DNA of 64,000 bases from an uncultured Chloroflexia bacterium (GTDB lineage Bacteria > Chloroflexota > Anaerolineae > CG2-30-64-16), in the NCBI GenBank assembly GCA_963810095.1, contig CAWEMM010000007.1, positions 32,001-96,000 on the forward strand, written 5' to 3'. Position numbers and translations under genes: made by a program. Within the stretch, counting starts at the first letter, position 1. Each line of letters begins with the position of its first letter. This document shows positions 5,341 to 56,167 of this stretch, one piece after another. The notes under the pieces are model-generated. The model had not been told where the DNA came from. It was given only the letters and a program-made list of their open reading frames with translations, and did not search any database.

Positions 5341-5451
5341 CCTAACCTCCTCTCAGTACGAAGACGCAGTAGTGGAAGCATTGTAGCACGAGTGAGCCGC
5401 GGGTGGTGAGCCGGGTTGTGCCGAGGGAGAGAGAACGGGGCCTGGCATGGA

Positions 5452-5484
5452 GGAGCCGCGGCATTCGTGTGTTGCCGCGGCTCC
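5452..5484 (-). terminator. GC-rich hairpin downstream of the cupredoxin gene
   Basis: GGAGCCGCGGCA / TGCCGCGGCTCC 12-bp stem; no clear U-tract. Confidence 0.45.
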
Positions 5485-5492
5485 CGGGAGCG

Positions 5493-6623
5493 TTACTTTA
5501 CCGTCGCGCTCGAGATCATGCCCAGCATGTAGTGCGGCTTGCCGCCGTTCTTCGGGCTGGGGATGAAGCAGACGATCGCATAGTCGCCCGGCGTCAGGTC
5601 CGCAGTCGTGTAGGCGGAAGCCCCGGGCGAGAGAACCATGCCAAACACGGGCGTCGCGGGAATGTTCTGCTGCTCTTGCCCGTTCGACTGCATCAGAAGC
5701 TTCTGGAACTGCTCGAACGTGGTGCCCGGCTTCAATTGCACCACCTGCGCCTCGTGCATCTCCGTGCCGCTGTTGCTCAGCAGGAGCGTCTGGCTGCCCG
5801 ACTTAAGCGTTCCGGTCATCTCGAAGTGATAGTCGACCATGTTGATCGTCACGTCAGGCTTCGGCAGTTGCACCGAGCTCGCCGCCGGCGCGGTGCCACT
5901 CACCGTGATCATCTTCAGCATGCCCTTCGCCGCATCGGGCCCGCCCTGGGGGTTGTCGCCGAACGAGAGCATCACGTAGTTGCCCGGCGTCAGGTTCACG
6001 ATGTAGGAAGACTTCGCGCCCGCCGCCGCGGTCGTGCTGCCCATGGACTGGGCCCAGTCGGGCGGGCCGTTCGCCGCCAGCGCCTGCGTCACGTCTTCGA
6101 GCGTCTTGCCCGCCGCGACCTTGTACAGCATGATGTCATGCTTCTCTTTGCCCTGGTTGTCCAGGGTCAACCGCGTCCAGCCGGCCGGCAACTGGTCGGG
6201 ACCGCTGTAGCTGTACTCGACCGCGGTGTAGGTGGCGTTCGACAGGCCGTCCGAGCCGATTGTTGCGGCATTGGCGCCCGCACCCGAAGCATCCGGCGAG
6301 GTCGTCCCGCTCGCGGACGGCGTCGAGTTGCTGCCGCTTGTCGTCGTCGTTGCGCCGGATGCAGGCCCAGCGGATGTCGCGGCGGGCTGTGCGGCGGTGG
6401 CATCGAGCGCCAGGGTGGCGGTCGCGACGGGCGAACTCCCAACGCCGGACGCGACAGTCGACGTCGCCCCGGCGGTCGCCGAGGCTGCGGTGCTACCTGG
6501 CGACACGCCAGGCGTCGATGCGCTCGGCGCGGCGGCGCCATTGGCAGCGCAGGCGCTGAGCGCCAACGCGAGGACAAGCAGGAGCGCGCCCGCGATGAGC
6601 GGGCGGCGATATGACTGGTGCAT
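5493..6623 (-). CDS. Lipoprotein with a Ser/Thr/Ala linker and two cupredoxin-like domains
   Basis: Lipobox LSAC. C-terminal domain has H...PGDYAIVCFIP...PHYMLGM type-1 Cu ligands. Confidence 0.8.
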   Translation of the reverse strand: MHQSYRRPLIAGALLLVLALALSACAANGAAAPSASTPGVSPGSTAASATAGATSTVASGVGSSPVATATLALDATAAQPAATSAGPASGATTTTSGSNSTPSASGTTSPDASGAGANAATIGSDGLSNATYTAVEYSYSGPDQLPAGWTRLTLDNQGKEKHDIMLYKVAAGKTLEDVTQALAANGPPDWAQSMGSTTAAAGAKSSYIVNLTPGNYVMLSFGDNPQGGPDAAKGMLKMITVSGTAPAASSVQLPKPDVTINMVDYHFEMTGTLKSGSQTLLLSNSGTEMHEAQVVQLKPGTTFEQFQKLLMQSNGQEQQNIPATPVFGMVLSPGASAYTTADLTPGDYAIVCFIPSPKNGGKPHYMLGMISSATVK

Positions 6624-6833
6624 TCCCTTCTCTCCTTTTGATTCAGATTAGCCCGAGGACCAAAAGTGGAGCCGGTTCCGGACGCCCGAGTTTAGTCCGC
6701 GATGATGCAGAGCCATAGTGTTGACATTACAATTTGACTATTTGCGCCATGACCTCCTCGAGGTTGGGCCGGTCGACAAGCCCTCGTGTTGCGAGGGCTT
6801 GTCGTTTTCTGCGCCCGGCTGCCGGCCAGACTC

Positions 6834-8699
6834 CTACTTCTCCGCTTCGTCCCCCTCCCACAGCCTCCGCAACTCGGCGCTGGTCTGCAGGAGCTCGTCC
6901 AGCGTCCCCTGCGCCTCGATGTGGCCGTCTTGCAGGACGATGACGTGGTCGGCCCGCCGCAGCGCGGCCCGGCGGTGCGAGACGGCCAGCACCGTCGCGC
7001 CGCCGGCCTCATTCGCCAGCCGGTTCCAAAGCGCCTGCTCGGTTTCTACGTCGAGCGCGCTAGAGAGATCGTCGAAAACCAGCAGGGCCGGCCTGCGGAC
7101 GAACATGCGCGCGGCCGCCGAGCGCTGCACCTGCCCGCCCGACAGGCGGACGCCGCGCGGGCCGACGAGCGTGTCCAGCCCCTTTTCGAGCTGGGCCACG
7201 TCCGGCTCCAGCACCGCCTGGCGGACCGCGGCCGCCAGCGCATCTGGTCCCGCGTGGGCGCCTTGCATGATGTTCTCGGCCAGCGTGTCGCTGAAAAGGC
7301 GGGGCGTCTGGGGTGTATACGCGCTGACGGGCGGGCGGAAGAACCCGGCCCGGTCCACGATGCGTTCTCCGTTCCAGCACACCTCGCCCGACTGGCTCGG
7401 GAGCAGGCCGAAGATCGCGCGCAGCAGCGTGCTCTTGCCCGAACCGATCTGTCCCGTGACGACCGTGAAGCTCCCGGCCGCCATCGTGAAGCTGGCGCCG
7501 GCGATCCCCCGACCTGAGTCGCCGTGGAGCGAGGTCAGCTCGCGCACGCTCAGCTCGGCAAGCGCTTCGGCCGGCTTTGCTCTCCCTGCGGGCTCCAGGG
7601 CAACAGCTGCTGCCCGGGCCTCCAGCGCCCGCGCAAACAGCCACCCCGAGCGCTCCTGGTAGGGGAAGGCGGGGTGGTGCTCGACGATCGCGGCCGCCGG
7701 TTCACCTGGGACGAGTTCCGCGAGGCGCCCGATCGCCACTTCCTGCTGCTTGTAGTCGCCCACGAAGCTCCCGAGGTACGACGGAAGCTCGGACGTGAAC
7801 CAGAGGAAGTAGGTGAAGAGCGCGAAGTCGCCGACCGTGAAGCTGCCCGTGACCATGCCCCGGCTCGCCATCAGCAGCATGGCGCCGGTGCTAACGACTA
7901 CGGCGATGCTGTGGATCGAGTAGACGAACGTCCCCAGCATCTGCGATTGCACGGCGGTGCGCTGACGCTCGTCGTTAAGCCGTTCGAAGTGGCGCACCGC
8001 ATGTCGCTCCGCCGCGCTGCCCGCCACCTTGAGCGCCTGGACCGCGCCGAACATCTCCGACAGGAAGCCGGTGACCCGGTCGCCCGCCTCGCCTTCGAGC
8101 TTGTGATACAGCAGCATCCGGCTCCAGGCCGCCCGGCCCACCGCGTACGCGACCACGACGGGCAGGAACGCGACGAGCGTAATCTGCCAGTTGATCGTCG
8201 CCATGATCGTGATCGCAGCGACAAAAGAGACCAGGTTGCCGGCAACGTCCGGCAGCCAGGTCGGGAAGTCGCAGACTTCGCCGACGTCGTTCCGGTAGCG
8301 GTACACGGCTTCACCCGGTGCGATCGGGTGCGATAGCGCGCCGGGCCGCCGCAGCAGCGCGGCGAACAGGTTGCGCCGCACCAGCGCGCCCGCCGTTTCG
8401 CGGAAAGTCCAGCCTGCGTACGTTTCCCAGTAGGAGGAAACGACCCGTGCGAGCCCGATGCCGATGTAGGCGGCGATCAACGCCCACAGGCTGACGGTGA
8501 CCTGAGCCTGGCCCGTGATCGTGTCAAACACCGCCTTTTCCACCAGGCCCGGCAGCACGCGCGAGCCGAGGAAGAAGATCTGCAGAACGGCGTGGATGGC
8601 GAACGGCCGGGACGCATAGGCGATCAGCGCCCGGTTGAAGGCCATCACGCTCATAGTCCTGCCGGCCGGCGTCGAAACAGGCGCTGTCACATCGTTCAT
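6834..8699 (-). CDS. ABC exporter, fused permease/ATP-binding subunit
   Basis: TM domain plus Walker [14 protein letters not shown], degenerate Walker B LVFDD and SHR. Confidence 0.93.
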
Positions 8700-10502
8700 T
8701 GCAGCGCCTCCTCGAGGCCAGTGCGCAGCAGCGCGCTGAACCGCGAGCCCGGATCTGCGGCCAGCTCCGCACGCGGCCCGAATTCCACTACCCGGCCGCG
8801 CTCCAGGATCAGGATGTCGTCGGCCCGGTCGACCGTGTGCAGGCGGTGCGCGATGACGAGCGCGGTCCGCCGCGCCCCGTTGTTGCCCAGCAGTCGATCG
8901 ATGGCGCCGTCGAGCCGGCGCTCGGTGATCGGGTCAAGTCGGGACGCGGCCTCATCCAGCACCACCAGTCCCGGGTTACGCAGGAGGATACGCGCGAAGG
9001 CCAGCAGCTGAGCTTCGCCCGCCGACATTCCCGCGCCGCCCGGCGCGAGGCGGGTTGCCAGTCCATCCGGCATTGCCCGCACCCAGTCGAGGATGCCCAG
9101 GCTGGCCAGGGCCGCTTCGATGTCGGCGTCGGCAACCTCGTCGTCGAACAGCGTGATGTTGTCGCGCACGGTCGCGCCGAAAAGCTGCACGTCCTGCGTC
9201 ACCAGCCCCACCGCAGACCGGAGCGCGTCGAAGGACAGGTCGCGCAGGTCGATCCCGTCGAGCCGGATCGCGCCCGAGGCCGGGTCGTAGAGCCGGAACA
9301 GCAGCCGGGTGAGCGTGGTCTTGCCGCTGCCCGTCCGGCCTAGGATGCCCAACACCCGGCCCGGCGCCAGCGGGAAGGAGACGTCGGCCAGCACCAACTC
9401 CGCGGTCGCCGCGCCATCTTCAGCGTTGTCGGCATACCGGAAGCTCACGCGTTCGAACTCGAGGCGGAGGGGGCCGCGTCCGACTTCTAGCTTGCCTTCG
9501 TTGGGGACGGCGGGCGCCTGGGCCAGAAGGTCGCCCACGCGGTTGATGCCCGCGCTGGCCTCCTGGAACCGCTCCGCCTGCCCGCGGATTTCCTCCAGCG
9601 GCGACGACAGCATCCCGATGTACGAGACGATCAGGAAGGTTGTGCCGATGCTGACCTGGCCCTGCAGGTACAGCGCCGCGCCGATCGCCAGGCCCAGGCC
9701 ATAGCCGGCGATGAAGAGGAAGTTGGTGAGCGCGCTGCCGAGCGCGCCCGCCATCCAGCCCGCCCGCGCCTTGTGGAACACGGTCAGCGCGAGCTGGGCC
9801 AGCCGGTGCTGTGCATGGGCCTCCGCGCCGATGCCCCGGATGTCCTCCAAGCCGGAGAAACGTTCCTCGAGGAAGCCCGTTTGCGCGGCCCAAGCCACCC
9901 GCGCCACCGTCCACGCCCGCACGCCGATCCGGTTTACAAACGCCAGCGCGGCGACAACCAGCAGGACGTACACGGTGACCGCCGCTCCCGCCCGCGTTCT
10001 CGCGGTAAAGGAAGCCGAGAATGGCGACCACGAGGAGCGCGTTGCCGGCCACCCGCACAACCATCTGCCCGAAGAACTCGGCCATCGTGGTCACGTCGCC
10101 GTCGACCCGCTCGATCAGCTCGCCCGGCGTGTGCGTCTTGTGAAAGGGCATGTCTAGGCGGAGCAAGTGGCCCGCCAGGTCGCCGCGCAGCCGGTTCGTG
10201 GCGTCCCAGCCCAGATTCAGCCCGGCATACGAGCCGCCCAGGTTGACCGCGCGGCCGAGCAGGCCGACCAACAGGAACAGCAGCGCAGCGCCGGTCAGCG
10301 TGCGCATCGATTCGCCAGCGGCCCCCGGGCTGGCGGCTTGGGCCGTGTCGATGAAGATCCTAACGATCTGCGGATTGAGCAGCCGCAGGGCAATGTCGAA
10401 GCCGATCAGCGCGGCGAGCATCACGATGCGCCGGCGATGCGGTGCAAGATAACGGCCGAGCAAGCGGCGTTGAAGCGGCAAGCCGGCGAGTGGAACGTGC
10501 AT
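8696..10502 (-). CDS. ABC exporter, fused permease/ATP-binding subunit (heterodimer partner), frameshift near 9990
   Basis: N-half in ORF 9420-10502 ([13 protein letters not shown]). C-half in ORF 8696-10060 ([21 protein letters not shown]). Stop overlaps the next start. Confidence 0.88.
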
Positions 10503-10533
10503 ACGTCACTCCAGGACTCGTAAAACCAAAGTT

Positions 10534-34099: not shown

Positions 34100-35266
34100 T
34101 TAGCGGCTGCCAAAGTCTGCGATGAAGTAGTACCCCCAGGCGCCTTTGGCCACGCCCACGCCGATCTCCGTGGCGCGGCCGGCCATGATATTCTGCACGT
34201 GCGGGTCGTTGCCCGGCGGCTCGTTCCACCACATCTCCATAGCACGAGCGACGCTGCGGGCGTTGGCCCAGTTTTCGCCCTGCCAATTATAGGCGTAGCC
34301 GGCGCGTTGCAGCCGGGACGGCAGGCGTGCGCCGTCCGAGCCGACGTGGCTGCCGCGGTTGCGGTTCGCGCAATCCTCCGCGTGCCCCTGCGCCGCCAGG
34401 GCGAGTTGGTCGTTCCAGACCAGGGCCGGCAGACCGCCCGCCACCCGCTTCTCGTTGATGCGGTTGACCATCTCCTGGGCCCACGGCGCCAACTCGGGCG
34501 CAAGCCCTTGCGTGGCGGGGAGGGGGGCCGGCGGCGGAGCCGCTGCGGGTGGAGCGGATGCGGCTGCGGCCGGCGCGTCGAGGCGCGCCGAAAGCACCTG
34601 CTGGGTGATGCCGGGGATGGTGAGCTGTTGGCCGGCCATCAAGCGTCGGGGATCCACCCCGGGATTGGCGGCGAGCAGCTCGCCTAATGACAGGCCGTAA
34701 TTAGCGGCGATGTCCCACAAGGTGTCTCGGCTCGCACGGTGTAGGTCGGCGTGGGTGGGCTCGGTCGCGGCGGCAGTCGTAGCCTTCGCGTAGATCCCAG
34801 GGATCAGCAGGATCTGCCCCGCCATCAGCCGTTGCGGATCCACGCCGGGATTGGCTGCGAGCAGATCGTTGACGAATACTCCGTACTTGGTGGCGATGTT
34901 CCAAAGGGTGTCGTTGGGCTTGACGGTGTAAATGGCGCCGGATGCGGCGGCCGCGCCGGCCGTGCCGGCGCCGGAGACGGGGGGCGTCTTCGAGGGGATC
35001 GTTAACGTCTGTCCGGGGCGGAGGGCGTCCGGGGTGACGTCCGGGTTGGCGGCTGTCAACTGTGCTACCGTGATGTCGAACCGGGTGGCGATATCCCAGA
35101 GCGTGTCGTTCGCGCGCACGACGTACTTGCCGTTGGGCGGCGGAGGCGCGGCGAACTGACCTTCCGCATGGGCGGCCGGGGCCAGTAGTGACATGATCAG
35201 GGGAACCAGCACGAGGAACAGCCAGGAGAACCGGTTGTTTTGTATGTGCATGGAGCCACTATACAT
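34100..35266 (-). CDS. Secreted protein with three LysM domains and a C-terminal CAP/SCP domain
   Basis: Signal peptide; three DTLW.IA..AANP repeats; NRINEKR, H..D, H.GSDG, GEN and H..NI. Confidence 0.92.
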   Translation of the reverse strand: MYSGSMHIQNNRFSWLFLVLVPLIMSLLAPAAHAEGQFAAPPPPNGKYVVRANDTLWDIATRFDITVAQLTAANPDVTPDALRPGQTLTIPSKTPPVSGAGTAGAAAASGAIYTVKPNDTLWNIATKYGVFVNDLLAANPGVDPQRLMAGQILLIPGIYAKATTAAATEPTHADLHRASRDTLWDIAANYGLSLGELLAANPGVDPRRLMAGQQLTIPGITQQVLSARLDAPAAAASAPPAAAPPPAPLPATQGLAPELAPWAQEMVNRINEKRVAGGLPALVWNDQLALAAQGHAEDCANRNRGSHVGSDGARLPSRLQRAGYAYNWQGENWANARSVARAMEMWWNEPPGNDPHVQNIMAGRATEIGVGVAKGAWGYYFIADFGSR

Positions 35267-35355
35267 GGCCTGAGTGAGTTGTGCAAGTGAACGGGAACGC
35301 GTTTCTTCAATAATCGCTTGTCATAGATTTGTAATATGATTGCTCCTGTTTCGTG

Positions 35356-35384
35356 TTGACACGCCAAAAAACGTCGCTTATAAT
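35356..35384 (+). promoter_or_regulatory. Consensus sigma70 promoter for the caspase-TIR locus
   Basis: TTGACA (35356-35361), 17-bp spacer, TATAAT (35379-35384). Confidence 0.85.
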
Positions 35385-35441
35385 GTTTGCGTCGTGCCGA
35401 CCGATGTGCTCCTATGTGAAGGCAGGTGTGCTGTGCCGTCC

Positions 35442-36686
35442 ATGAGTAATGCCCACGCGCTGATTGTCGGGATTGCCGGATATCCAAACGTTGCTCCACT
35501 GCCCGACACCGTGTTGGCCGACGCCAACGACGTGGCCGACGTTCTCACCGACCCCAATCTCTGCGCCTATCCGCTCAACCAGGCCTGCCTCCTGCTCGAC
35601 GGCGAGGCGACGCTGCCGAGGCTGCGTTCCGAGTTGGCGAACCTCGCGCAGCGAGCCAATAACGATTCCACCGTCTTCATCTATATCTCGGGCCACGGCG
35701 GCCGTATCGATTCCGGGCCGGCGAAAGGGGAGTACCTGCTGCCCTACGACGTATCGCTCGACCCCGGGGTTGTGCCCCCGCAGATTCGCGCCGAGACGGC
35801 CATGTCGGGCGCCGAGTTCGCCGAAGCGATGGCCAAGATACCCGCCCGCAAGCTGCTTGTGGTCTTCGATTGCTGCCATGCGGGCGGGCTGGGCGCGACG
35901 AAGGATGCGACCGGTCCCGCGCTCAAGGCCGGCCTCTCTGAGGACTACTACGGCCGTTTGGCCGAGGGTCGGGGCCGCGTCATCCTCGCCTCGTGCCGGG
36001 GCAACGAGTTCTCTTACGTGCTGCCCGGCGCCCCCAACAGCCTGTTTACGTCGCACCTGCTGAGCGGCCTGCGGGGGAATGCGCCGTCACCGGCCGGCAT
36101 GATTCGCATCTTCGACCTCTTCGGCTACCTCCAGCCGAAGGTCGTGGGCGACCAGGCCTCGCAGCACCCCATCTTCAAGGCGGAGATCGAGGACAACTTC
36201 CCGGTCGCGCTGTCGGTGGGCGGCAAGGGCGTGCAGCTGCCGCCGCCGGCCCCGCCCGCGGGCGACGGCTTCGCCTACGATGTCTTCCTCAGCTACCGCG
36301 ACCAGGACCCGGACAAGACCTGGGCTCGCAAAACGCTGCTGCCGCGGCTGGAGCAGGACGGCCTGAAGGTGATCGAGCAACGCCGCTTCCGGCTGGGCGC
36401 GCCGATCGTCAAGGAGATGGAGCGGGCAGTGGTGCAGAGCCGTTACACGCTCTCCGTACTCTCGCCGGCCTATATTGACGGGAACTTCACCGATCTTGAC
36501 TCCGTCCTTGCCGAACATCTGGGGCTTGAGAACAGCCAGCGCCGCCTCGTGGCCGTGATGCGGGAGAACTGCAAACCGCGGCTTGGGATGCGTGCGCGCA
36601 TGTGGCTGGACATGACCGAGGATACCGAGTTCGACGACAACCTGGAGCGATTAGTCTACGAGCTGAAGCAGCCGCCAGTTATGTGA
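35442..36686 (+). CDS. Caspase-like peptidase C14 fused to a C-terminal TIR domain
   Basis: ALIVGI..Y, SGHG and FDCCHAG dyad, SLFT..L; then YDVFLSY, F.LG and LSPAY. The ATG at 35442 lies downstream of the promoter. Confidence 0.92.
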   Translation: MSNAHALIVGIAGYPNVAPLPDTVLADANDVADVLTDPNLCAYPLNQACLLLDGEATLPRLRSELANLAQRANNDSTVFIYISGHGGRIDSGPAKGEYLLPYDVSLDPGVVPPQIRAETAMSGAEFAEAMAKIPARKLLVVFDCCHAGGLGATKDATGPALKAGLSEDYYGRLAEGRGRVILASCRGNEFSYVLPGAPNSLFTSHLLSGLRGNAPSPAGMIRIFDLFGYLQPKVVGDQASQHPIFKAEIEDNFPVALSVGGKGVQLPPPAPPAGDGFAYDVFLSYRDQDPDKTWARKTLLPRLEQDGLKVIEQRRFRLGAPIVKEMERAVVQSRYTLSVLSPAYIDGNFTDLDSVLAEHLGLENSQRRLVAVMRENCKPRLGMRARMWLDMTEDTEFDDNLERLVYELKQPPVM

Positions 36687-36709
36687 AAGGTCGGGTGTGG
36701 GCCAGCAGT

Positions 36710-39700
36710 ATGCCCGACGAACCAACCTACTCGCTGTTCATCATCCATGCGCCGGAAGATGAGGCGTGGGTGCAGTCCTACCTGATCCCGGCCGTGGGAC
36801 TGCCCGCCGAACGCCTCATTCTGTCCTCTCGCTTCCGACTGGGCGCGTCGCGGGCGGAAGAGCTGCAGCGGGCCGTGGAAAACAGCCGCTTCACCCTCCT
36901 CATCCTGACCCCGGAGTTCTTCGAGGATCCCTGGGCCCGCAAGGCCGAGGAACTGGCCGACTACCTTGCCACGCTCGACCAGATGGATCGCATGATCCCT
37001 CTGAACCTCAAGCCGTCCAAGAAGTCGCTGCGGATTGCTCTGCGAGTGGGCCTCGATTGCACGAACCCTGACAACTGGGACGGCGAGGTCGAGCGGCTGC
37101 GCGACCAGTTCGAGCCGGGCGTTGCACAGCCCGCGGAAGAGCCGGACCTTCCGCCGCCCTACCCCGGAATGCGCCCGTTTGAAAAGGACGACGCCAGGTA
37201 CTTCTACGGCCGGACCGCCGAGATCAAGCTCATGCTCGAGACCCTGCGCTGGCAGAAATTCGTGCTGGTGATCGGCGCGTCTGGCTCGGGCAAATCTTCC
37301 CTGATCCGCGCCGGGCTGCTGCCCAAGCTGGCGGACGCGCCGGAGTTCCGGGAGCAGCGCTGGCTGGTGCCCGATCCCATTCGCCCGGGAACGGCGCCGC
37401 TGCAGAGCCTGGCTGCGGGGCTCGGGATCACTTTCCCGCCACCGAATGAGCCGCGCGATGCTGGGGCAGCGACCGGGCCGGCTGCGGAGCTCGGCAAGGC
37501 GGAGCTGGAGGCGATTGACCTGGGCGTCGACGCCCTGCTCAAAAGCCGGGAGCGGGCCACCTGCTGTTCACGGTCGACCAGTTTGAAGAGGTGTTCACCC
37601 AGGGCGATCGAGCCGAGCAGAAACGGTTTATCCAGGCGCTCAAGCGGCTGCGCCAGCACAGGGCGGCCGCGGTGGTCGTCGCAATGCGGGCCGACTTCTA
37701 TGACGACTTGCTGCAGAGCGACCTGTCGCCGATCGAGCCGGGCCAGCGCTTCGACCTGGGACCACTGAAGGGGGCCGGGCTGCAAGAAGCGATCGTAGAG
37801 CCGGCGAAAGCCAAGGGTGTCTTTCTCGACCAGGCGCTGCTGCAAAAGCTGATCGCCGATGCCAGCGACGCGCCCGGTGCGCTGCCCCTGCTGCAAGAGA
37901 CGATGCGAGCGCTGTGGTACCGCCGGCGCCGCAATTTCCTGCCCTACAGTGCTTACGAGGAGTTCGCCGGATCGGGCAACTCCCTGGTGGTTGCGATCGC
38001 GAACAAGGCCGAAGCGACGCTGGCCGACTTCCCCGAGCCGAAGGACGCGCACGTGGCGATCGCTCGCCGCGTGTTCCTGCGCCTCGTGCAGTTCGGCGAG
38101 GGCCGGGCCGATACCCGCCGGCAGCAACCCGAGCCCGCGTTGCAGGCGGTGGAGGACGGCGCAGGCTTCTTCAAGCCGACGCTCGCCCACCTGGTCGACA
38201 GCCGCCTGATCGCCCTGAGCCGGGATGAGGCCACGGGCGATCAGCAGAGAATCGACATCGCGGACGAGGCGCTCTTCTCGGGCTGGCCAACGCTGAAGGA
38301 ATGGATCGGGCAGTACCGCGAGCATGAGGTGCTGCGCCGCAAGCTCGACGGCCGAGCTGCCGACTGGAGCGCAAACGCGCGCTCCAGCCAGCAACTGCTG
38401 AACCGGGTCGAACTCGGCCAGTTCGACGAATGGCGAAAGAAGGACGCGGGCAAAGCAAGTGCCGTCGGCCACAGCTCCGACCTTGACGCGCTGGTTGCGG
38501 CGAGCCGGCGCCAACTGCGCCGGGCCCTCATCTTCCGCATCGCGACGACCGCGGCGCTGGTGCTGCTCATCCTGCTGGCGATCTTCATTTGGAGCGACGG
38601 GCGCCAAAGAGCGGCCGCCACCGAGGTCGCCGCACAGCGTGAGATCGTCGTGGCCAAGGAGGCCGGGTTGGCTACCGCGCAGGCCGGCGAGCGGGCTGCC
38701 GTCGACGCGCAGGCTACGGCCGAAGCCAACCGCAACCAGGCCGTGGCGGCCCGGCAGACCGCCGAGGCCAACCGGCTGCAGGCCCTCCGCAACGAGTCGG
38801 GCGCATGGGCCGAGCTCGCCAGCCAGAACCTGCAGACGGATCCGGTGGCGAGCCTGTGGTGGAGCAGCCGGGCACTGCCCTCCCCGGCCCACCCGCGGCC
38901 CGCCGTGCCGAGCGCGGAGTACCAACTGCGTCTCGCCCTGCAAGAGAGCCTGGAGCAGACGTACGCCGACCTCCACGGGCCGCGGGTCGACGCAAACGGA
39001 CCCCTCATTGCAGTAGGCGGCAGCAGCTTGAGCCTGTGGCCCCGCGATCTGAGTCCTGCAGTCAAGCGGCTGCCCGGCGCGGTCGACGACCTTGGCTGGC
39101 ACACGGACGGCTCGCTCTTCACTTACACCGGGAATGCCCTCACGGTGTGGCGTAACGACGTGGCCTACCGCCACGACCTCGCGGACACGATCGGAGGCGC
39201 AGTCTGGCGGCCCGCCCGACCCGAACTCGCCGTATTGAGCGGCCAAACCCTTTCCTTGTGGCCGTACGTGTCCGGCGAACCCCTGGCGCTCGAGGTGTTC
39301 AGCGACACGCTCGACATCCGTAAACCCTACTTACCCCTCGCCTGGTCACCGACCGGCGACGCGCTTGCCGCATGGGACCAAGGCGGCGCACTCCTCATGT
39401 ATGGCGCGAACCTGCCCGAGGGCGCGATCACGACCACGTTGACCTTGCCCGGCCCTGTCGAGGGTGCAGCCTGGTCGCCTGACGGCAAGACGCTGGTGGC
39501 CTTGCTGCGAAGCGGCGACGCCTTGGCGCTGTCGGGCAACATGAGCCTGAAGGCAGCCCGCCGTTTCTCGCCGTCCACCGCCAGCGACGCCAGCGGGGCT
39601 TTCGGCGGCGTCATCTTCGTCGACGCCGGCCATTTCCTCACCTGGGGCCGCAACACTGCACCGAAGCTCTGGGCGCTCGACGACCTTGCCGCGCCGAAGG

Positions 39701-41220
39701 CAACCTATCCCCTAAACCTCGGCGCAGTCTCGGGGATCGACCTGGCGCCCGATCGAGCGCGTTTTGCCGTTTTCGGGGAGAACGGCGACGTCGACCTCTT
39801 TAGCGTGGACGGAACACAGCAGTGGACCCTGCGGGGGCACAGCCGTTCGGTGGTGCAGGCGGCCTGGAACGGCGATCTGCTGGCGACCGGGGGTTCGGAC
39901 GGCATGGTGCGCGTGTGGGATTTGGCCGAGTCGGCCACGCCGCCGCCGGTTGCGGAACTCGCGGCCGCCGCGCCGGGCGCGAGTCTGGGCCAGTCGTACG
40001 TGAACGCGCTCGAATGGCGGCCGGGAGGGCGCCTGTTGGGCACAGCCGAGGACGGTTCCGCCCGCATCTGGCAGGTGCTCGACGGCGACGGCCGTCCGGT
40101 GTGCAGCGGCGGCTGGACGACCGGGCCCACGAAGACGGTCTGCGCGGCAGACAGCCGGGCGCTGCGCGGCCACCAGGACCGGCTCGATGTACTGCGGTGG
40201 TCGAACGAGCAGACCTTGCTCAGCACCGATGTCACCGGGGCCGCCCGCAGGTGGGACCTGCAAACGGGCGAGACATTCCTGGTTTCGGGCACGCCCGACG
40301 TCGAGCGGCGCGCGCTGTGGAGTCCAGACGGGTCGATGGCGTTCGCGTACGATGCACCGGGTGGACCGAATGGCCCCGGCGACGGCGTCATCACCGATGT
40401 GCGAACCGGCGCTCGGCAGGCAACGGTCAAAGGACCGGTGCTGTGGGCCCACTGGTCGGACCTGGGCTTGCTCGTCGCCCGTGAAGGGACGGACCTGGTT
40501 CGCATCGACCCGACCACGGGAGAAGACGGAGACAGATATACCGGAGCGCCGGCGGGCGACCAGATCACCGATGCCGCCGTCAGTGGATCGCAGTTGGCCG
40601 TTGCGGACAAGGGCGGCGCGATCCACGTGTGGACCGCCCCCGGCGCCGCGCCCTCTGTGCTACAACAAGATGAGGCCGGACCCGTCGGGCGGCTGGCATG
40701 GTCGCCGGACGGCAAGCGCCTGCTGGGCGCGGGCACGCACGTCGTTCTGTGGGACGTAGCCGGCCGGGAGGAGGTATGGAAGACGTTTGAGAGCGGGCTT
40801 GGCTCGTGCCGCCCCGCATTCAGCCCGGATGTGAAGCTCATCGCGGGCTGCATCGACGCGCAGACCTACGTCTGGCAGGCGGACAAGGGGACGACGCTCT
40901 GGTCCGCGTGGACGGGCAATGGGGACGGGAAAGGCGTGACCTGGCGCACTGCCCCGACCTTCGACGGCGCCGGGTCACGGCAGATCCTGCTCTCGTCGGC
41001 AGGCAACCTGGCCCAGTTGTGGGATTGGGACGCCCGCGCGTTGATCGGTGAGTACCGCCAGGCGCCTGAGCTTAACCTTGCTACTATCAGCCCGGATGGC
41101 AAGTGGCTGGCGACGACGAACGATGTTGGGGAGATCCGGCTCTGGAATCTCTCGTTGGGCGATCCGCAATCGCTGCTCCACTCTGCTGCGGGCCGCATTA
41201 CGCGCACCTTTGAGAAGTGA
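36710..41220 (+). CDS. TIR - nSTAND1-type NTPase - TM - WD40 repeat protein, frameshift near 37550
   Basis: N-terminal TIR-like domain (LFIIHA.ED..WV, SRFTLLILTP). PYPGMRPF, YFYGR, Walker A GASGSGKSS, Walker B VDQFEE, MRADF and PGALPLL. TM at about 38525-38593, then many WSPDG/WD repeats. Confidence 0.9.
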
Positions 41221-41307
41221 GGTCCCGGTTTTGAAATGCTGCCCTCGCCTCTGCACCGGAAACCGAGATGCGATCCTTCGAGAAGTAGTCACGGGTGGGA
41301 GGACAGT

Positions 41308-42837
41308 ATGAAGATAACTGGATTGGCAGCGAGATCAGCCTTTGGCCGGTACGTCCTCATCGCAGCACTCATCGCGGTCGCACTGACGACGGGCAGCAAC
41401 CTGACATCATCGGCATCATCTTCCGGGGCTGCTCCTGCCCCGCCTGCGGCATGTAACACCGTGATCCCGGTCTTCCAGGACGCGATCACGAATTGCCGTG
41501 AGATCAACAACGACTATGCCTGCTACGGCACCTATAACAGCAAGGGCGCGGCCGTCGCGCAGCCGAACGAGAAGCTGCGCTTTAAGATGCCACAGGACCG
41601 GGCGGCGATCGAGCGCTTCCAGAGCCTGGCGACCCTGCCATATCGAACGACGTACGGCGCGGCGCTGATGCGCCTGACGGCGCCCGGGCAGGCGGAGCCG
41701 GTGACTGCGATCCTGTTTGGCGATGCCGCGCTGACGCCAAGTCAGGCCGCGGCGGGGCGCGTCTTCACGCTCAAGACGGTGGGCAGCAATCCGGTCTGCC
41801 AGGCAACACCGCCAGGGCTTGCGGTCCGGGTGCCCTCTGGCAAGACGGGGCGCATCACGATCAACGGTGTCGAGATCAATCTGGGCAGCACCGCGTATGT
41901 CGCCGCGCTAAGCAGCACCGAGACGGTCGTTGCCAACCTGCAGGGAAACGTGGGCGTGCGCCTACCCACGCTCGACGCGACGTTGGCGCTGCCCGTGGGC
42001 CAGCAAACCCTGGTCACAACTCAAGACGGCGTCGCCACGGCATTCACCCAGCCCGCCCCATCTCCTTACGCAAAGTCTAGCCTGCTGCAGTGGTTGGTTG
42101 CCAAGGGGCTGCCCCAGGTGGGCAACCCGAACGGCCAGCCCGACGGGCGTATCGCCTGCGGCGGCCCGATTGCCTTCGGACAGACTATCAGCCAGGCGAA
42201 CGCGACGCCGGGGCAAGAGTGCATCTACCAGTTCTGCGCGAATGCGGGCGACGTGGCGACGATCACCATGGAGCGCCTCAGTGGGCGGCTTGACCCGTAC
42301 ATCGATCTGCGCGCGCCCGACAAGTCGGTCATCAAGTGGAACGACGACACTGCGCCGGGCGCCAGCAATGCGACCCTCTGCAACCAGGTGCTCCCGGTAT
42401 CGGGCTGCGATTACACGATCGTCGCACGGCCCTCGGGCAATGACACGAGCGGTAAGTTCCGCGTCACCCTGGCCGGCCAGAGCGCGTGCCAGGCCCAGGT
42501 GCCCAACTGCCAGGTCAACCCACCGGGCGTCATCTTGCGCAATGGCCCGGGCACGCAGTACGCAAAACTCGCCACCCTCGCGGGCGGCACGAAGCTCTTC
42601 CGCCTGAGCAGCGATCCCGGCACGCCGTGGGTGCAGGTGCAGGTCGCAACGTCCGGGCAGAAAGGGTGGGTGCTGGCCGACGCCGAGCAACTCTATTGTG
42701 ACGACGGCGTGGCCGTGGCCCAGCCGAGCCAGGGCAGCTCGCCATCGGCGGGCCCACCCGCCGCCACAACCGTACCGCCGCCGCCTCCACCGTCGCCGAC
42801 TACGCCGCCCAAGGCCGGCCCATTCCCCCTGCCCTGA
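41308..42837 (+). CDS. Secreted Cys-rich multidomain protein (FecR-like beta region, PPC-like domain, SH3b, Pro-rich tail)
   Basis: Signal peptide; AGD..TITM..LDPY.DL..WNDD..YTIVA (PPC); LRNGPGTQY..W.QV..GWV (SH3). GGAGG RBS. Confidence 0.82.
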   Translation: MKITGLAARSAFGRYVLIAALIAVALTTGSNLTSSASSSGAAPAPPAACNTVIPVFQDAITNCREINNDYACYGTYNSKGAAVAQPNEKLRFKMPQDRAAIERFQSLATLPYRTTYGAALMRLTAPGQAEPVTAILFGDAALTPSQAAAGRVFTLKTVGSNPVCQATPPGLAVRVPSGKTGRITINGVEINLGSTAYVAALSSTETVVANLQGNVGVRLPTLDATLALPVGQQTLVTTQDGVATAFTQPAPSPYAKSSLLQWLVAKGLPQVGNPNGQPDGRIACGGPIAFGQTISQANATPGQECIYQFCANAGDVATITMERLSGRLDPYIDLRAPDKSVIKWNDDTAPGASNATLCNQVLPVSGCDYTIVARPSGNDTSGKFRVTLAGQSACQAQVPNCQVNPPGVILRNGPGTQYAKLATLAGGTKLFRLSSDPGTPWVQVQVATSGQKGWVLADAEQLYCDDGVAVAQPSQGSSPSAGPPAATTVPPPPPPSPTTPPKAGPFPLP

Positions 42838-42867
42838 GTCGGGGCGTTCATCGGAAGGAGTTGTGAG

Positions 42868-45324
42868 ATGAGAATGGTGACGAGTCTGGGACGGCGGCGG
42901 GGCCGCATCGGGCGGTTTCTTCTCGTGCTGGTCGGGGCCGCAGCCTTGTCTGCCGGCTTCGCCACGGCCATTTCGGCGGGCACGGTCGGCCCCCGTGAAG
43001 TTGTGTTCACGGTAACCTCGACGGGCGACCAGGGTGACGGGGCGCCCGGCGACGGCGCGTGCCTTACTGCCGGCCGCGTCTGCACGCTGCCGCGCAGCAG
43101 TGGAAGAGGCGAACGCGGGCGGAGTGCCGGCGACTGTGCGCTTCGACCTGCCGCTGCCGGCGACCATCAAGCTGGGCGCGGCCCTGCAGGTCCGGGGCAG
43201 CCTGAGCATCCAGGGCCCGGCCGCGGGCCTGTTGGCCCTCGATGCCCAGGGCCTTGGCCGGCACCTCGACATCCAGCCCGCTGCCGGACCGGCCGCCGTC
43301 AACGTGTCGCACCTTCTGCTCGCCAACGGGATGTCGGCCGCGGATGGAGGCTCGGTGATCGTAGAGAGCGCCGTGCAACCGGCCGACGTGACGTTCGAGC
43401 GGGTGGTCTTCAAGGATAATACGGCGGCAGGCCGGGGCGGCGCGTTGTTCAGCAACCTCGGCAACGTGACGGTGATCGACTCGCTCTTTACGAACAACCT
43501 GGCAGCCAGCGGCGGCGCGATCGCCAATTCAGGAGGCACGCTTTCGGTCGAGCGCAGCACCCTTGCGGCGAACCGGGCCACAGCCGACGGCGGCGCACTG
43601 TACAATGTGGATCACGGCAGCGTAGGGCGCAGCGGCAACATGACGGTCACCGTCAGCACCCTGGTCGACAACCAGGCTGCCAACCATGGCGGCGCGCTCT
43701 TCAACGGGACGGTGGACGGCAGGGGCGCGGCGACATGGGTGCGCGGTTCCACCATCGTCCGCAACAGTGTCACTTCCGGCTCGGCCGAGGCTGCGGGCGG
43801 CGGCGCGTATGACAACGCCACTTGTCTTGTCCTCAACAGCACGATTCTCGCCGGGAACACCAGGGGGTCCGGCGCGGGCCGCGCCTGGGACGAGTGCGTG
43901 TCGAAGAGCGGGAGCCTCCCCGCGCGCGCCGGCGCCATCCCCGACTCATTCCTGACCGGCGGCGATAACCTGCTGGGGAACGCGGCCGGCGGTGGCTGCG
44001 CGCCAAGCGCCGGCGACGTCCAGATCGACCCTGCCCGGCTCTTCGTCGACGTGCTGCACGATCAACTGGCCTCCTACGACGGATCGCAGCCGATGTTCGC
44101 GTTGCGGCCCAACAGTCCGGCAATCGACTACACCCCCGCCAACAGCCACGTCTGCGGCACGGGCCTCACCGTCGACCAGCGCGGGGCGCCGAAGCCGCTC
44201 GGCGCCGCTTGTGATATCGGCGCGTACGAAGCCGCTCTGCCCGCGGTGACCGCGTCGCGCACCCTCAGCATGGACCCGGGCTCCTGCTCGAGCCAGTCCT
44301 CGGTCGAACTGGCGACCGGGGCGCTTGTCTATTCCTGTGCGACCGTCGTCAACACCGGTAATGTTGCCTTCACCCGGACGGAGATCTCCGTACCGGGCTG
44401 GCCGCGCCCCTACGTCCTGGCACAGCCGCTCGCGCCCGGGCAAGCGATCACGCTGACAGCCGCTCAATTCCCGGCGCTCGGGCCGATGCGTGTGCTTGGC
44501 GATGCGCCCGCCGGTGTGTTTGGCGCAGGCGACAGCCAATGGAGCGCGCCTCCGGGATTCCCTCGCAGGCGGCCGGCAAGGGTCTGTCGCTTGCACGACC
44601 GGTGGATGTGGCGATGCAGGTGACCGCGAAGCCCTTCGGTTTCGGCGCCATCCGCACCGTCACGGCCACGGTGACCTATCACGAGACAGGCGCCATCATT
44701 CCGCAGCGCCTTGTGAAGCTCTACATCAGCGGCGGAACGACCGCGCAACTACCGGCACAGTCGACTAACGGGCGGGGCCAGGCGGTCTTCAGCTACATCA
44801 GCTTTTCGCCGCTGACGCCCGCCACGGCAGGGCTTACCGGCGGGCAACCTGCCCGGGCGCTGAGTACGAGCCCGGAAGCCGTGCAGGCCACTGACTTCCT
44901 GCAGATGTGGGTCGATCTGAACGGCAACGGGCTGCGCGACCCGTTCGAGCCCTTCACGGCCGCGGGCCTGCCCACCGCGATCACGCTCGCATCGTTCGAG
45001 GCGCAGGCGGGTGCGGCAGACGCCGTCGTGCTGCGCTGGCGAACGGCCACGGAAGTCCAGGTGGCCGGCTTCAACGTGCTCCGGGCGGCGCAGCCCCAGG
45101 GACCCTACACCAAGGTCAACCCGAATTTGATCCCCAGCCAGGGCACAGGGCTGGGCAGCGACTACGAGTACACCGACCATCCGGGCGCGGCGGGCACCTA
45201 TTACTACAAGCTCGAAGAGGTCGGGTCGGACGGGAGCACGGTCGTGCACGGGCCGGTGACCGTGCAGCCAGGCGGGCCGATCGACGGCGGGCATCGCCAA
45301 TTCCTGCCGTGGATTGGCCGTTAG
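42868..45324 (+). CDS. Secreted CSLREA / beta-helix (choice-of-anchor Q-like) protein with C-terminal Ig-like domain; frameshifts near 43094 and 44570
   Basis: FTVTSTGD..GDGAC..CTLRAAVEEANA; N.A..GGA repeats; SPAID..DQRG..CDIGAYE; PTAITLASFEA..W.TATE..GFNV.R..YYYKL; tail FLPWIGR. Confidence 0.8.
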
Positions 45325-53638: not shown

Positions 53639-53653
53639 GTCGACGAGTGATCT

Positions 53654-56167
53654 GTGGCGTCTGAAAACCTGAGCGAGCGAATTGCCGGGGGCATCGCGCG
53701 CGCCGCAGCCTGGTTTGCCGAGCGGGGCTGGTCGCCGTTCGAGTTTCAACGCGAGGCGTGGGCCGCGTACCTGCTCGGGGAGAGCGGGCTGATCCACGCC
53801 GCGACTGGCACGGGCAAAACGATGGCCGTCTGGTGGGGGCCGCTGCTCGAGTGGCTGGCCGAGCATCCCGATCGCAAGGCATGGCGTGCGCCCCAGGGCT
53901 TGCGGGTGCTGTGGGTCACGCCGATGCGGGCGCTTGCGGCGGACACGGAGCGGGCGCTGCGCGACGTCGTGGACGACCTCGGCTTGCCGTGGACCGTCGA
54001 GCGGCGAACCGGCGACACGGGCGGCTCCGTGAAGGCGCGGCAACTTAGGAAGCCGCCGGCAGCACTCGTCACCACGCCGGAGAGCCTGGCGTTGATGCTC
54101 TCACAGGAGGGGGCCAGGGGTTATTTCGGTGCGCTCGACCTGATCGTCGTCGACGAGTGGCACGAGCTGCTCGGGTCCAAGCGCGGGTCGCTGACCGAGC
54201 TTTGCCTGGCCCGGCTGCGCGGCTGGCGGCCCGACCTGCGGCTGTGGGGGCTGTCGGCCACGCTCGGCAACCTGGACGAGGCGCTGGCGGCGCTGGTGGG
54301 CGTCGATGAGCTGGGCTGCGCCGCGGCCGGGCCGCCTCATCCGGGCGGTCATTCCGAAGCAGGTCGTGGTCGACTCGCTGATTCCGCCGAGGGTCGACCG
54401 ATTTCCCTGGGCGGGACACCTGGGCCTTGTCATGCTGCCGCAGGTGGTCGGCGCCATCGAGGAGTCGCGCTCGACGCTGGTGTTTACGAATACGCGCAAC
54501 CAGGCGGAGAGGTGGTACCAGTCCATCCTGGAAGCGCGGCCCGACTGGGCGGGGGTCCTCGCGCTCCATCACGGCTCGCTGGCCGCAGAGACCCGAGCGT
54601 GGGTGGAGGACGGGCTGCGCGACGGGCGGCTGCTGGCGGTCGTCGCGACGGCCAGCCTCGACCTCGGCGTGGACTTTTCGCCGGTCGACCGGGTGCTGCA
54701 AATTGGCAGCCCGAAGGGAATCGGCCGGCTGCTCCAGCGGGCGGGGCGCAGCGGCCACCAGCCCGGCGCGCTGAGCCGGGTTTCGTGCGTGCCCACGAAC
54801 GCGCTGGAACTGGTGGAGGCCGCCGCGGCCCGGGATGCGGCGGAAGGCGGGCGGGTCGAGCCGCGCGAGCCGCTGGCGAAACCGCTGGACGTGCTCGTGC
54901 AGCATCTCGTCACAGTCGGGCTGGGCGGCGGCTTTGCGCCCGCAGCGCTCCTGGCCGAAGTACGGACCGCGTACGGGTACAAGGACCTGTCGGTCGAAGA
55001 GTGGCAGTGGGCGCTCGACTTCGTCGCCAACGGCGGGGGCGCGCTGGGCGCGTACCCGGAATACCGCCGGCTTGCGCTCGTCGACGGGCAGTACCGGGTG
55101 GTCGACAAGGACATCGCACAGCGGCACCGCCTTTCGATCGGCACAATCACGAGCGACCCGGTTATCGAGGTCAAGTACTTGCGCGGGCCGAGCCTGGGCT
55201 CCACGTCCGAGTCGTTCATCAGCCGGCTTAAGCCGGGCGACAGGTTCATTTTTGCGGGCACGCCGCTCGAGTTCGTGCGGGTGCACGATATGACGGCGTG
55301 GGTGCGCCGCTCGAACTCGCTGAAGGGTGCGATCCCCACGTGGACGGGCACCGGGCTGCCCATCTCGCAGGAGTTGAGCGACGCGGTCCTGGTCCGGCTG
55401 GGGGAGGCGCGGGAGGGGCGGCTGGAGGGGCCGGAAATGCAGGCGGTGGCGCCGGTGCTGCGGGTGCAGATGAAAGTCTCCACGCTGCCCGCGCCGGGCG
55501 AGCTGCTGATCGAGCGGGTCAAGACCGCGAGGGGCATCACCTCTTCTTCTACCCGTTCGCCGGTAAGTTGGTCAACGCGGGGCTGGCGGCGCTCTTCGCC
55601 TACCGCCTCAGCCGGCTACAGCCCATCACGTTCACCACGACGGCGAACGATTATGGGTTTGAGCTGCTCTCGGCGGAGAAACCAGGTTTCTCGACCCTCG
55701 GCTCGGCCGAGGCGAAACCCGGTTTCTTGTTCGCGACCGACACCCTGCTCGACGACATCCTGGCGAGCATGAATGCGGGCGAGATGGCCAAGCGCCAGTT
55801 CCGCGAAATCGCCCGGGTGGCCGGCCTGGTCTTCCAGGGGTTTCCCGGCCGGCATCACCCCGCCCGCCATCTGCAGGCGTCTAGCAGCTTGTTTTACGAG
55901 GTGTTTCAGAAGTACGACGAGGGGAACCTGCTGCTGGCCCAGGCGCAGCGTGAGGTGCTGGCGAGACAACTCGAGCAGAGCCGGCTGGCGCGCATCCTGC
56001 AGCGGCTGGCGGAGGGCGAGGTCGTGCTGAAGGACGTCGCCCGGCCGACGCCGCTGGCGTTCCCGCTGCTGGTGGAACGGATGGAGACGGCGCTCAGCTC
56101 GGAGTCGCTGCGCGAACGCATCGAGCGCATGACGGTGACACTCGAGAAATGGGCTGACGCTAGCTGA
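53654..56167 (+). CDS. Ligase-associated DEXH-box (Lhr-like) helicase; frameshifts near 54325 and 55530
   Basis: FQ..W, ATGTGKT, TPMRAL, TTPESL, DEWHE, SAT, HHGS, SLDLGVD, QRAGRSGH and FREIARVAGL. Confidence 0.92.

Follow-up and report, generated by a model that had tools for sequence, protein, structure and literature searches.

The bacterial conflict systems that most resemble the locus described here are those built on the nSTAND1 clade of NTPases, named in an eLife 2021 paper (PMC8195603) that reports N-terminal TIR, caspase and adaptor domains and FGE-sulfatase sensors, and proposes a coupling of partner proteins through homotypic adaptors. In these effector-associated domain (EAD) systems the N-terminal domain has a second copy, encoded by an effector gene next door, and either variable repeats or FGE-sulfatase domains serve as sensors; filamentous and multicellular lineages show an enrichment of such systems. 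Related systems, some of them membrane-proximal, were described in eLife in 2020 (PMC7159879), periplasmic sensors have been predicted for some diversified NACHT targets (PNAS 2024, PMC10907252), and transmembrane regions have been noted in NACHT proteins (10.1101/2022.07.19.500537), which use a different NTPase clade and for which no paired caspase-TIR is described. A survey of 473 cyanobacterial orthocaspases found TIR_2 on a single protein (PMC8283722). Statements about these papers, and about the preprints cited below, refer to the parts of their text that were available. In the literature examined, bacterial STAND/NLR-type defence proteins sense phage proteins inside the cell. Here we describe a two-gene cassette in a 64-kb stretch of the genome of an uncultured Chloroflexia bacterium (G000:C7:32001-96000; this whole stretch is called the window, and positions are counted from its first letter), in which a caspase-TIR protein (gene A) is encoded next to a TIR-nSTAND1 protein whose WD40 sensor region is predicted to lie outside the cytoplasmic membrane (gene B).

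The cassette shares with EAD systems the principle of adaptor coupling. Both of its genes carry a TIR domain and, when related loci are considered, a second TIR gene accompanies the caspase-TIR gene in 65 of 80 (species-representative genomes contain 456 stretches with a relative of gene A; the best 80 were examined, with up to 8 kb on each side). It differs from the described EAD systems in that the TIR domain is an effector there, not a shared adaptor, and is not among the named EADs; moreover, their sensors are proposed to meet invader molecules, and no membrane helix between nSTAND1 and sensor is mentioned. Neither the pairing of a caspase-TIR with a TIR-nSTAND1 protein, nor TIR as the shared adaptor, nor a general nSTAND1 membrane helix is described in the literature text that we searched, although figures or supplements may show them. 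The feature is real, widespread and uncharacterised. Because the pair recurs across phyla, it suggests a cell-death or defence pathway, itself uncharacterised, with which external signals are sensed.

Gene A and gene B lie side by side in the same orientation, 23 bp apart, with the stop codon of gene A at 36686 and the ATG of gene B at 36710, as a first-pass annotation made from the sequence letters had stated. That annotation had also read gene A as a C14 caspase with an intact His/Cys dyad and a C-terminal TIR, and this holds: both domains score above their Pfam cut-offs (Table 1), and the His (H85) and the Cys (C144/C145) are invariant in all 20 aligned relatives, the caspase fold and the H85-C145 dyad together marking the protein as a member of Peptidase C14. 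A profile of the gene A family matches metacaspase structures, and a Foldseek search with the protease returned the MALT1 paracaspase as the best hit (E 5.4e-08, with an identity of only 13-17%), followed by GSU0716 and metacaspase-4; the AlphaFold model behind this search is of moderate quality (mean pLDDT 72.8) and served for the fold search only. For the TIR domain, the family profile finds its best solved-structure matches in the TIRs of TLR15/2, TLR1 and TLR6 (E 1e-15 to 3e-13), in agreement with Foldseek (TLR1, Hydra TRR-2, TLR10, TLR15 and TLR6).

Judged by length, identity and domain content, the caspase-TIR proteins form a tight family. Of 8000 candidates scored, 888 were relatives at E<=0.001, and those listed are mostly 406-432 aa long, 55-90% identical and made up of PF00656 and PF13676, with source names that include Tectomicrobia, Thermodesulfovibrionales, Chloroflexota and Acidobacteriota, amongst others. 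A profile search amongst 1.84 billion cluster representatives found 1759 at E<=1e-30, and showed the same caspase clade in many other architectures as well. The genome under study holds a single caspase-TIR gene.

Gene B was likewise correctly read in the first-pass annotation as a protein with a TIR and an nSTAND1 domain, and the transmembrane helix proposed there agrees with a single hydrophobic segment. Its TIR exceeds the TIR_2 cut-off, as does that of gene A, and its nSTAND1 domain is recognised in two model pieces, with both Walker A and Walker B present, although in the assembly these pieces are split between frames; read from stop to stop, the second piece covers model positions 110-378. 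The Ala-rich region that had been noted after the helix is also there, and the WD40 region, put at about 750 aa, comes to about 770 aa of WD40/PD40-like propeller (WD40 E 1.1e-18; the part after the helix alone gives E 8.1e-20, together with several beta-propeller families).

The expectation that the pair would be conserved was borne out by the 80 loci, which span at least six phyla and whose record titles name Cyanobacteria, Chloroflexota, Actinomycetota, Planctomycetota, Acidobacteriota, Thiothrix and other Pseudomonadota, and KSB1. An nSTAND1 open reading frame (ORF) lies within 8 kb of the caspase-TIR gene in 49 of them, on the same strand in 48 (28 downstream, 20 upstream), and a further two loci (L023, L043) show a broken or truncated nSTAND1 match. 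Searches with five TIR queries located the second TIR outside the caspase-TIR gene in 48 loci with an nSTAND1 partner and 17 with other partners. The proteins encoded by these 17 vary (TIR-TPR proteins in L005-L007, for example), and because the partners without nSTAND1 have only the TIR in common, the TIR is probably the module by which caspase-TIR and partner are coupled, which we regard as the strongest argument from gene context. Pairwise distances of the caspase domain and of the partner NTPase are correlated across 33 loci (rho 0.53, reached by none of 2000 permutations), as are those of the two TIRs (rho 0.27, reached by 2 of 2000); this correlation reflects a shared history of the two genes, not binding. 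The most conserved part of the cassette is the caspase domain, with a mean pairwise distance of 0.38 as against 0.51 for both TIRs. Copies that are intact occur in records titled Calothrix brevissima NIES-22 plasmid2, Cylindrospermum sp. NIES-4074, Scytonema sp. NUACC26 and Planktothrix sp. PCC 11201.

Three sets of loci show other arrangements. In six of Chloroflexota type (L028, at 1963-9245, and L038, L042, L047, L070 and L081) the caspase-TIR gene is the last of an operon, preceded in order by genes for a TIR protein of 554-604 aa, for a product of roughly 1018-1108 aa that had no Pfam match in either of the two cases tested, and for one of roughly 320-380 aa, which is a LysM protein in L028. 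The TIR protein has weak to moderate matches to BNR/Sortilin-type propellers in four of the six, a hydrophobic helix with an Arg-rich N-terminal flank in four of six, and no NTPase match, and in outline it resembles a minimal Toll-like receptor. In L048 and L051 (6520-7899, minus strand) a 460-aa TIR-FGE-sulfatase protein, in which no membrane helix was detected, is encoded divergently from the caspase-TIR and adjoins a 1130-aa helicase-like AAA_11/AAA_12-PLDc_2 protein. In L063 (7863-9722) a single 620-aa ORF holds a caspase followed by two TIR stretches.

The contact between the two TIRs, on which the first-pass interpretation turned, was examined by co-folding residues 1-140 of gene B with residues 272-414 of gene A. 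The pair scored 0.52, the best of three controls 0.11, with runs agreeing in at least 97% of contacts and a partner pLDDT of at least 78. Amongst the pairs used for calibration, 58 of 80 solved complexes and 2 of 110 mismatched pairs attained the mark for this score, and passes at or below 0.60 comprise only seven of the 80 solved complexes together with both passing mismatches. As our own alignments were used, these calibration counts hold roughly, and since solved TIR-TIR complexes exist the pass may be a matter of memory. The outcome is consistent with the proposed contact and lends it weak support.

The sequences of the TIRs bear on whether they might act as enzymes. At the position aligned to the conserved Glu of TLR TIRs, which we take to be the catalytic Glu of enzymatic TIRs, the gene A family has Glu in 17 of 20 members and Asp in three (gene A and its two closest relatives). 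Amongst the partner TIRs, as read from the alignment, an acidic residue is found in about 28 of 39, and N, R, T, G, K or A in about 11 of 39. From these residues, the partner TIR looks dispensable as an enzyme, which fits a scaffold role, while the TIR of the caspase protein may keep activity.

The prediction that the WD40 region lies outside the membrane was examined by hydropathy and flank charge. Applying a criterion of a 19-residue window with a Kyte-Doolittle mean of at least 1.8, lying 20-70 residues beyond the nSTAND1 match, we found a hydrophobic helix in 42 of 49 partners; of the seven without one, three are cut by contig ends and one is a fragment. In these 42, the 15 residues on the N-terminal side of the helix contain on average 4.9 Lys and Arg, as against 2.0 on the C-terminal side, with the N-terminal side richer in 37, the C-terminal side in one, and four ties, a bias in keeping with the positive-inside rule. 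Gene B has four Arg in the 15 residues before its helix and two in the 15 after. Because the ATPase must be cytoplasmic, the region after the helix should be outside the cytoplasmic membrane. This region contains WD40 matches in 25 of 39 partners, and where it is short it is an FGE-sulfatase domain in 8 of 10 tested, beginning 14-29 residues after the helix. Hydropathy and flank charges thus argue that the WD40 and FGE-sulfatase sensors are probably outside the cytoplasm. All five nSTAND1 genes of the genome have the helix as well, so far as hydropathy can tell, and in the data examined it appears as a general trait of the nSTAND1 clade. In this respect the first-pass annotation needs correcting, as it had treated the design as special to this locus: the design is instead general to the nSTAND1 clade in these data, and caspase-TIR proteins also pair with TIR partners that are not STAND proteins. 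The family-level property, a STAND/TIR receptor family predicted to look outward, is the most interesting aspect of the locus.

Taken together, these features can be read as an outside-in switch for cell death or defence, in which the STAND receptor recruits and activates the caspase by TIR-TIR contact, a reading that we consider as likely to be right as wrong. Gene B would be a single-pass protein, with its TIR and nSTAND1 ATPase in the cytoplasm and its stalk and WD40 propellers outside the cytoplasmic membrane. A ligand arriving from outside, such as a component of a phage or competitor, or debris from the envelope or from neighbouring cells, would bind the propellers, and NTP-dependent oligomerisation of the STAND module would then cluster the N-terminal TIRs. 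The clustered TIRs would recruit the TIR of the caspase-TIR protein, and induced proximity would activate the caspase, as for caspase-9 on Apaf-1 or MALT1 on its scaffold, leading to cleavage of cellular proteins and perhaps to self-processing at Lys154. Once assembled, the TIR of the caspase protein, being acidic at the catalytic-like position, may also consume NAD+. Topology in the living cell, clustering by ligand, TIR-TIR binding and activation by proximity all enter this scheme as suppositions, as does a role in defence or kin recognition. More tentatively, and with the odds somewhat against it, the same idea may extend to several phyla as a class of Toll-like outside-in receptors, with an ectodomain (WD40, FGE-sulfatase/lectin-like or BNR propeller), one helix, a cytoplasmic TIR with or without nSTAND1, and TIR-TIR recruitment of a dedicated caspase-TIR executioner.

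Three eukaryotic pathways invite comparison. In the Apaf-1/caspase-9 apoptosome, as is proposed for the cassette, a STAND ATPase with WD40 repeats recruits a caspase through homotypic adaptors for activation by proximity; the adaptor is a CARD in the one and a TIR in the other, the NTPase is NB-ARC/AP-ATPase in the one and nSTAND1 in the other, the propellers are cytosolic in the apoptosome and predicted to be outside here, and the cassette caspase is metacaspase/paracaspase-like, unlike that of the apoptosome. As Pfam finds neither NB-ARC nor CARD in the cassette, the resemblance to the Apaf-1 type is a functional analogy only. With Toll-like receptor (TLR) pathways the cassette, in its proposed form, would share a receptor that crosses the membrane once, carries its sensor in an ectodomain and uses a cytoplasmic TIR to recruit a second TIR protein, and TLR1/2/6/10/15 provide the best solved-structure matches to the TIR of gene A. 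It departs from them in having its TIR at the N-terminus, in reversed order, with an ATPase between TIR and membrane, in having WD40 or FGE-sulfatase domains in place of a leucine-rich repeat ectodomain, and in that the protein proposed to be recruited is itself the protease. MALT1 on CARMA-BCL10, the closest structural counterpart of the gene A protease, is activated by scaffold-induced dimerisation on recruitment to an oligomeric scaffold; in place of a TIR, it relies on a death domain and Ig domains as adaptors.

If the proposed mechanism is right, the nSTAND1 clade would provide the first STAND/NLR-type sensors of the extracytoplasmic space and not of the cytosol, an external cue could trigger caspase-type death or dormancy before or at invasion or upon damage to neighbouring cells, and a receptor-TIR-adaptor-protease logic would be present in bacteria. 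Bacterial TIRs are known chiefly as enzymes; the cassette would be a simple case of one that serves as a homotypic adaptor, and would bear on the origin of Toll-like receptor and apoptosome designs. The intact copies, whose records are titled as cultured cyanobacterial strains, make the idea directly testable.

A number of observations weigh against this mechanism. The literature that we searched holds no experimental evidence for the family, the evidence for topology consists of hydropathy and flank charges, and the scheme does not account for a coupling of ligand binding to the ATPase through a single helix. The co-fold verdict is a weak one. Gene B itself is frame-broken in the only sequence at hand, and the public contigs are silent at the site. 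The first-pass annotation had proposed a check for known defence systems, and PADLOC called none on the cassette, returning domain-level matches only: in the N-terminal part of gene B these are PDC-S66 (TIR, E 7.6e-06) and mad3 (P-loop, E 2e-04), its C-terminal 1209 aa match 0 PADLOC families, and gene B falls outside the PADLOC models of Avs/AVAST, bNACHT and other catalogued STAND defence proteins. The neighbouring genes encode proteins of exported or secreted type and not defence proteins. In 15 of the 80 loci the five TIR queries found no second TIR, although seven of these 15 have a contig end within about 1.4 kb, and the caspase-TIR may also act alone or with partners encoded elsewhere. 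Seven genomes of the same genus contain no close gene B orthologue (the best matches are 32% and 51% over parts); because same-genus genomes do not share the cassette, it is by this comparison accessory, and nothing ties it to the biology of the lineage. Finally, with acidic residues at the catalytic-like position in 20 of 20 gene A relatives, and with a Glu in gene B that falls opposite the TcpB TIR Glu in the HMMER alignment, enzymatic signalling by the TIRs is possible.

Such signalling could take a Thoeris-like form, in which the activated TIR of gene B turns NAD+ into a molecule that switches on the caspase-TIR, with no need for TIR-TIR contact. This has a precedent in type IV Thoeris, a bacterial system of two genes, one for a TIR protein and one for a caspase-like protease that N7-cADPR activates (10.1101/2024.10.24.620036), and besides the aligned Glu of gene B there is a partial match of gene A to the PADLOC 'caspase' model PDLC02987 (E 1.6e-16, covering profile positions 2-158 of 453). 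We nevertheless think it unlikely here. In Thoeris the TIR enzyme is short and the protease has no TIR, whereas here the protease has one too and is partnered by a STAND protein of about 1500 aa, predicted to span the membrane, so that by architecture the cassette falls outside type IV Thoeris. The loss of the acidic residue from about 11 of 39 partner TIRs would be unexpected in an obligatory enzyme, a Pfam scan found no known nucleotide-sensing domain in gene A, and the literature examined does not present TIR domains as receptors for signals of this kind. The acidic residues could equally serve NAD+ depletion by both TIRs, gathered on a STAND oligomer, with the caspase acting as a regulator that processes a component, for example itself or its partner, so as to free or restrain the complex. 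Metacaspases are Lys/Arg-specific, and the invariant K154, in a low-confidence loop directly after the catalytic Cys, would suit self-processing by a relative with such specificity; the acidic residue of the gene A TIR is shared by the whole aligned family, and many bacterial TIR effectors deplete NAD+ (10.64898/2025.12.03.692087). Three observations make this scenario, too, improbable: the part under strongest conservation is the caspase and not the TIRs, gene A itself has Asp and not Glu at the catalytic-like position, and elsewhere in the genome a caspase of the same clade is joined to nSTAND1 with no TIR present, while the clade occurs in many other architectures, which suggests that the caspase is an output in its own right.

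A sensor outside the cytoplasm could also belong to a pathway with no part in immunity, one of development or envelope surveillance that responds to cues from the cell wall or neighbouring cells and steers cell fate within a filament. The record titles show the family to be concentrated in Cyanobacteria, Chloroflexota, Thiothrix and Actinomycetota. The cassette is flanked in the window by LysM-CAP and SH3_3 proteins, which carry cell-wall-binding domains, and in the six operons above the caspase-TIR gene follows a gene for a TIR-transmembrane-propeller protein, with a LysM gene as well in L028. The flanking genes of the window have no relatives in the 80 loci, and the patchy distribution within the genus together with the variable sensors is typical of conflict systems, as which nSTAND1 proteins are read in the literature (PMC8195603); we therefore regard a non-immune role as distinctly unlikely. 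A switch for death or defence, with TIR-TIR recruitment of the caspase, is the reading that we prefer. The observation made in the first-pass annotation stands and its interpretation is supported in part; none of the results that it had named as contrary to it (the lack of a helix or a cytoplasmic WD40 region, the lack of a TIR-TIR interaction, a pair not conserved in other genomes, or a frameshift confirmed as genuine) was obtained.

The state of gene B in this organism requires separate discussion. Three long ORFs on the plus strand span the cassette (35340-36686, 36602-37768 and 37591-41220), the second and third of which make up gene B, and the indel that had been suspected near 37550 is real in the assembly as a frame switch. 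The closest relative of gene B, P0124, is a protein of 1455 aa that reads through the break site; it is 60% identical to gene B over the whole of the 3' ORF and 56% over the 5' part. Other relatives holding the match have open frames of 1491, 1502 and 1463 aa, and when the 277-aa N-terminal part of gene B was compared with 30 relatives, four matched at E<=1e-20. Amongst public Logan contigs, those of the four best-matching runs, compared over positions 36700-38700, have no coverage at 37102-37704.

The assembly is error-prone. A codon-usage scan of the genome found 709 same-strand frame jumps amongst 7934 coding segments, 411 of them strong; the strong ones are spread evenly across the full set of contigs, at about 0.65 per 10 kb. 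The window contains four breaks with strong signal, all confirmed by Pfam domain order: one in gene B, two in an Lhr-type helicase (53651-56164, plus strand), which is spread over three frames (DEAD, then Helicase_C and WH_Lhr, then DEAD_assoc), and one in an ABC transporter (8699-10505, minus strand) whose ABC_membrane domain is interrupted midway (profile positions 12-135, then 147-274 with ABC_tran). A pair of minus-strand candidates over the helicase has low scores (29 and 25) and was taken to be its opposite-strand shadow. Because such breaks abound in ordinary genes across the assembly, that in gene B is probably an assembly error, and the gene of the organism intact.

The alternative, that gene B is a true pseudogene and the cassette dead in this organism, draws on the fact that the only sequence at hand has the frame switch and that public contigs leave the site uncovered. 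Break junctions are also not enriched in homopolymers (runs of at least four bases at 31.1% of 411 junctions and in 29.1% of 7458 control windows), so that the usual sign of one kind of long-read error is absent, a result that neither favours nor excludes assembly error. Both halves of gene B keep a strong coding signal and full domain matches, there are no stop codons beyond the shift, and housekeeping-type genes of the same window are broken in the same way. Low completeness is likewise seen in other few-contig genomes of the genus, as against about 90% in the many-contig ones. A genuine pseudogene is on these grounds quite improbable. A shared or programmed frameshift site was considered and rejected, as a second nSTAND1 paralogue (C7:515-517 kb) breaks after Walker B and gene B before it.

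The features of the cassette and its neighbours are collected in Table 1. Position 35356, given in the first-pass annotation as the start of the feature, proved to be the -35 box of a promoter-like match, with the start of gene A further downstream. Two sites of the TTGACA-17-TATAAT type occur in 35200-43100, as against a mean of 0.6 in 50 shuffles; the call at 35356-35384 is a consensus match only, and the consensus may not be that of this organism.

Table 1 Features of the cassette and its flanks, in window coordinates
Feature	Position	Strand	Basis or remark
LysM x3-CAP protein	34100-35266	-	Signal-like N-terminus; flanks the cassette
Promoter-like site, TTGACA-17 nt-TATAAT	35356-35384	+	Sigma-70 consensus match at 12/12 positions; 58 bp 5' of gene A start
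Gene A, caspase-TIR protein, 414 aa	35442-36686	+	ATG at 35442; Pfam; identical database protein P0004
Gene A, Peptidase_C14 (caspase-like) domain	35454-36200	+	Pfam PF00656, E 8.6e-15, 55.5 bits (cut-off 21.4)
Gene A, catalytic His motif SGHGG	35688-35702	+	Within Peptidase_C14
Gene A, catalytic Cys motif DCCHAGG	35868-35888	+	Within Peptidase_C14
Gene A, C-terminal TIR	36282-36656	+	TIR_2 PF13676, E 5.5e-18, 66.1 bits (cut-off 28)
Gene A, TLR-like BB-loop motif in TIR	36381-36404	+	Motif coordinates
Gene A, Asp aligned to conserved Glu of TLR TIRs	within 36486-36518	+	HMMER alignment to TLR TIRs
Spacer between genes A and B, 23 bp	36687-36709	+	ORF coordinates
Gene B, TIR-nSTAND1-transmembrane-Ala-rich stalk-WD40	36710-41220	+	ATG at 36710; one frame switch; second and third ORFs combined
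Gene B, 5' part, frame 2	36710-37546	+	TIR and first part of nSTAND1; 56% identity to P0124 over 239 aa
Gene B, N-terminal TIR	36737-37099	+	TIR_2, E 4e-10, 40.7 bits (cut-off 28)
Gene B, nSTAND1, first part	37157-37447	+	PF20703 model positions 1-89, 98.1 bits (cut-off 27.1)
Gene B, Walker A	37274-37300	+	Motif coordinates
Gene B, frame switch (frame 2 to frame 1)	37543-37549	+	One base apparently missing relative to intact P0124
Gene B, nSTAND1, remainder, frame 1	37547-38388	+	Model positions 127-378, 184.5 bits, E 6.1e-54
Gene B, Walker B	37561-37590	+	Motif coordinates
Gene B, single predicted transmembrane helix	38527-38592	+	22 hydrophobic residues; Kyte-Doolittle 2.58 over 19 residues
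Gene B, Ala/Gln/Arg-rich stalk, probably helical	38593-38910	+	Read from translation
Gene B, C-terminal WD40/PD40-like beta-propeller region, about 770 aa	38911-41220 (including stop codon)	+	Pfam
SH3_3 protein	41236-42837	+	Start 15 bp after gene B
PMP-repeat protein	43034-44623	+	
Peptidase_C25 (gingipain family) protein, 927 aa	44907-47690	+	

The flanking genes were considered as members of the cassette and rejected: in tblastn searches against the 80 loci, the LysM-CAP, SH3_3, PMP-repeat and C25 peptidase proteins and a 435-aa ORF gave no match at E<=1e-4.

Elsewhere in the genome, which totals 6.13 Mb in 16 contigs (estimated completeness 88.5%, contamination 4.8%; GC about 63-70%), there are further nSTAND1 genes. 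In a paralogue on the same contig (G000:C7:509000-518500, minus strand) a caspase is fused directly to nSTAND1-transmembrane-WD40, with no TIR; the gene is split into ORFs of 575 aa and 1679 aa by a frame switch directly after Walker B. Because it fuses the two, the caspase can be seen as a natural output of nSTAND1. About 7.5 kb to the left of the window (G000:C7:17500-24500) lies an nSTAND1-transmembrane-WD40 gene with a short N-terminal extension, whose 1016-aa ORF shares about 220 nt with a 383-aa WD40 ORF of the same strand; the two are probably one gene with a frame break. On another contig (G000:C6:1603500-1611500, minus strand) a CHAT-SIR2_2 protein (688 aa) is encoded upstream of an nSTAND1-transmembrane-WD40 gene (1329 aa) with an overlap of 244 nt, possibly a second effector-sensor pair or another frame break. 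By the likeness of its RecA protein (G000:C6:889859-893644) to four named proteins of Anaerolineae or Chloroflexi, at 85-88%, the organism probably belongs to the Anaerolineae within Chloroflexota; many Anaerolineae are filamentous, and on this likeness the filamentous habit supposed in the first-pass annotation would depend. The one other named RecA match, at 97%, is labelled as a Nitrososphaerales archaeon, which is probably a binning error in that record.

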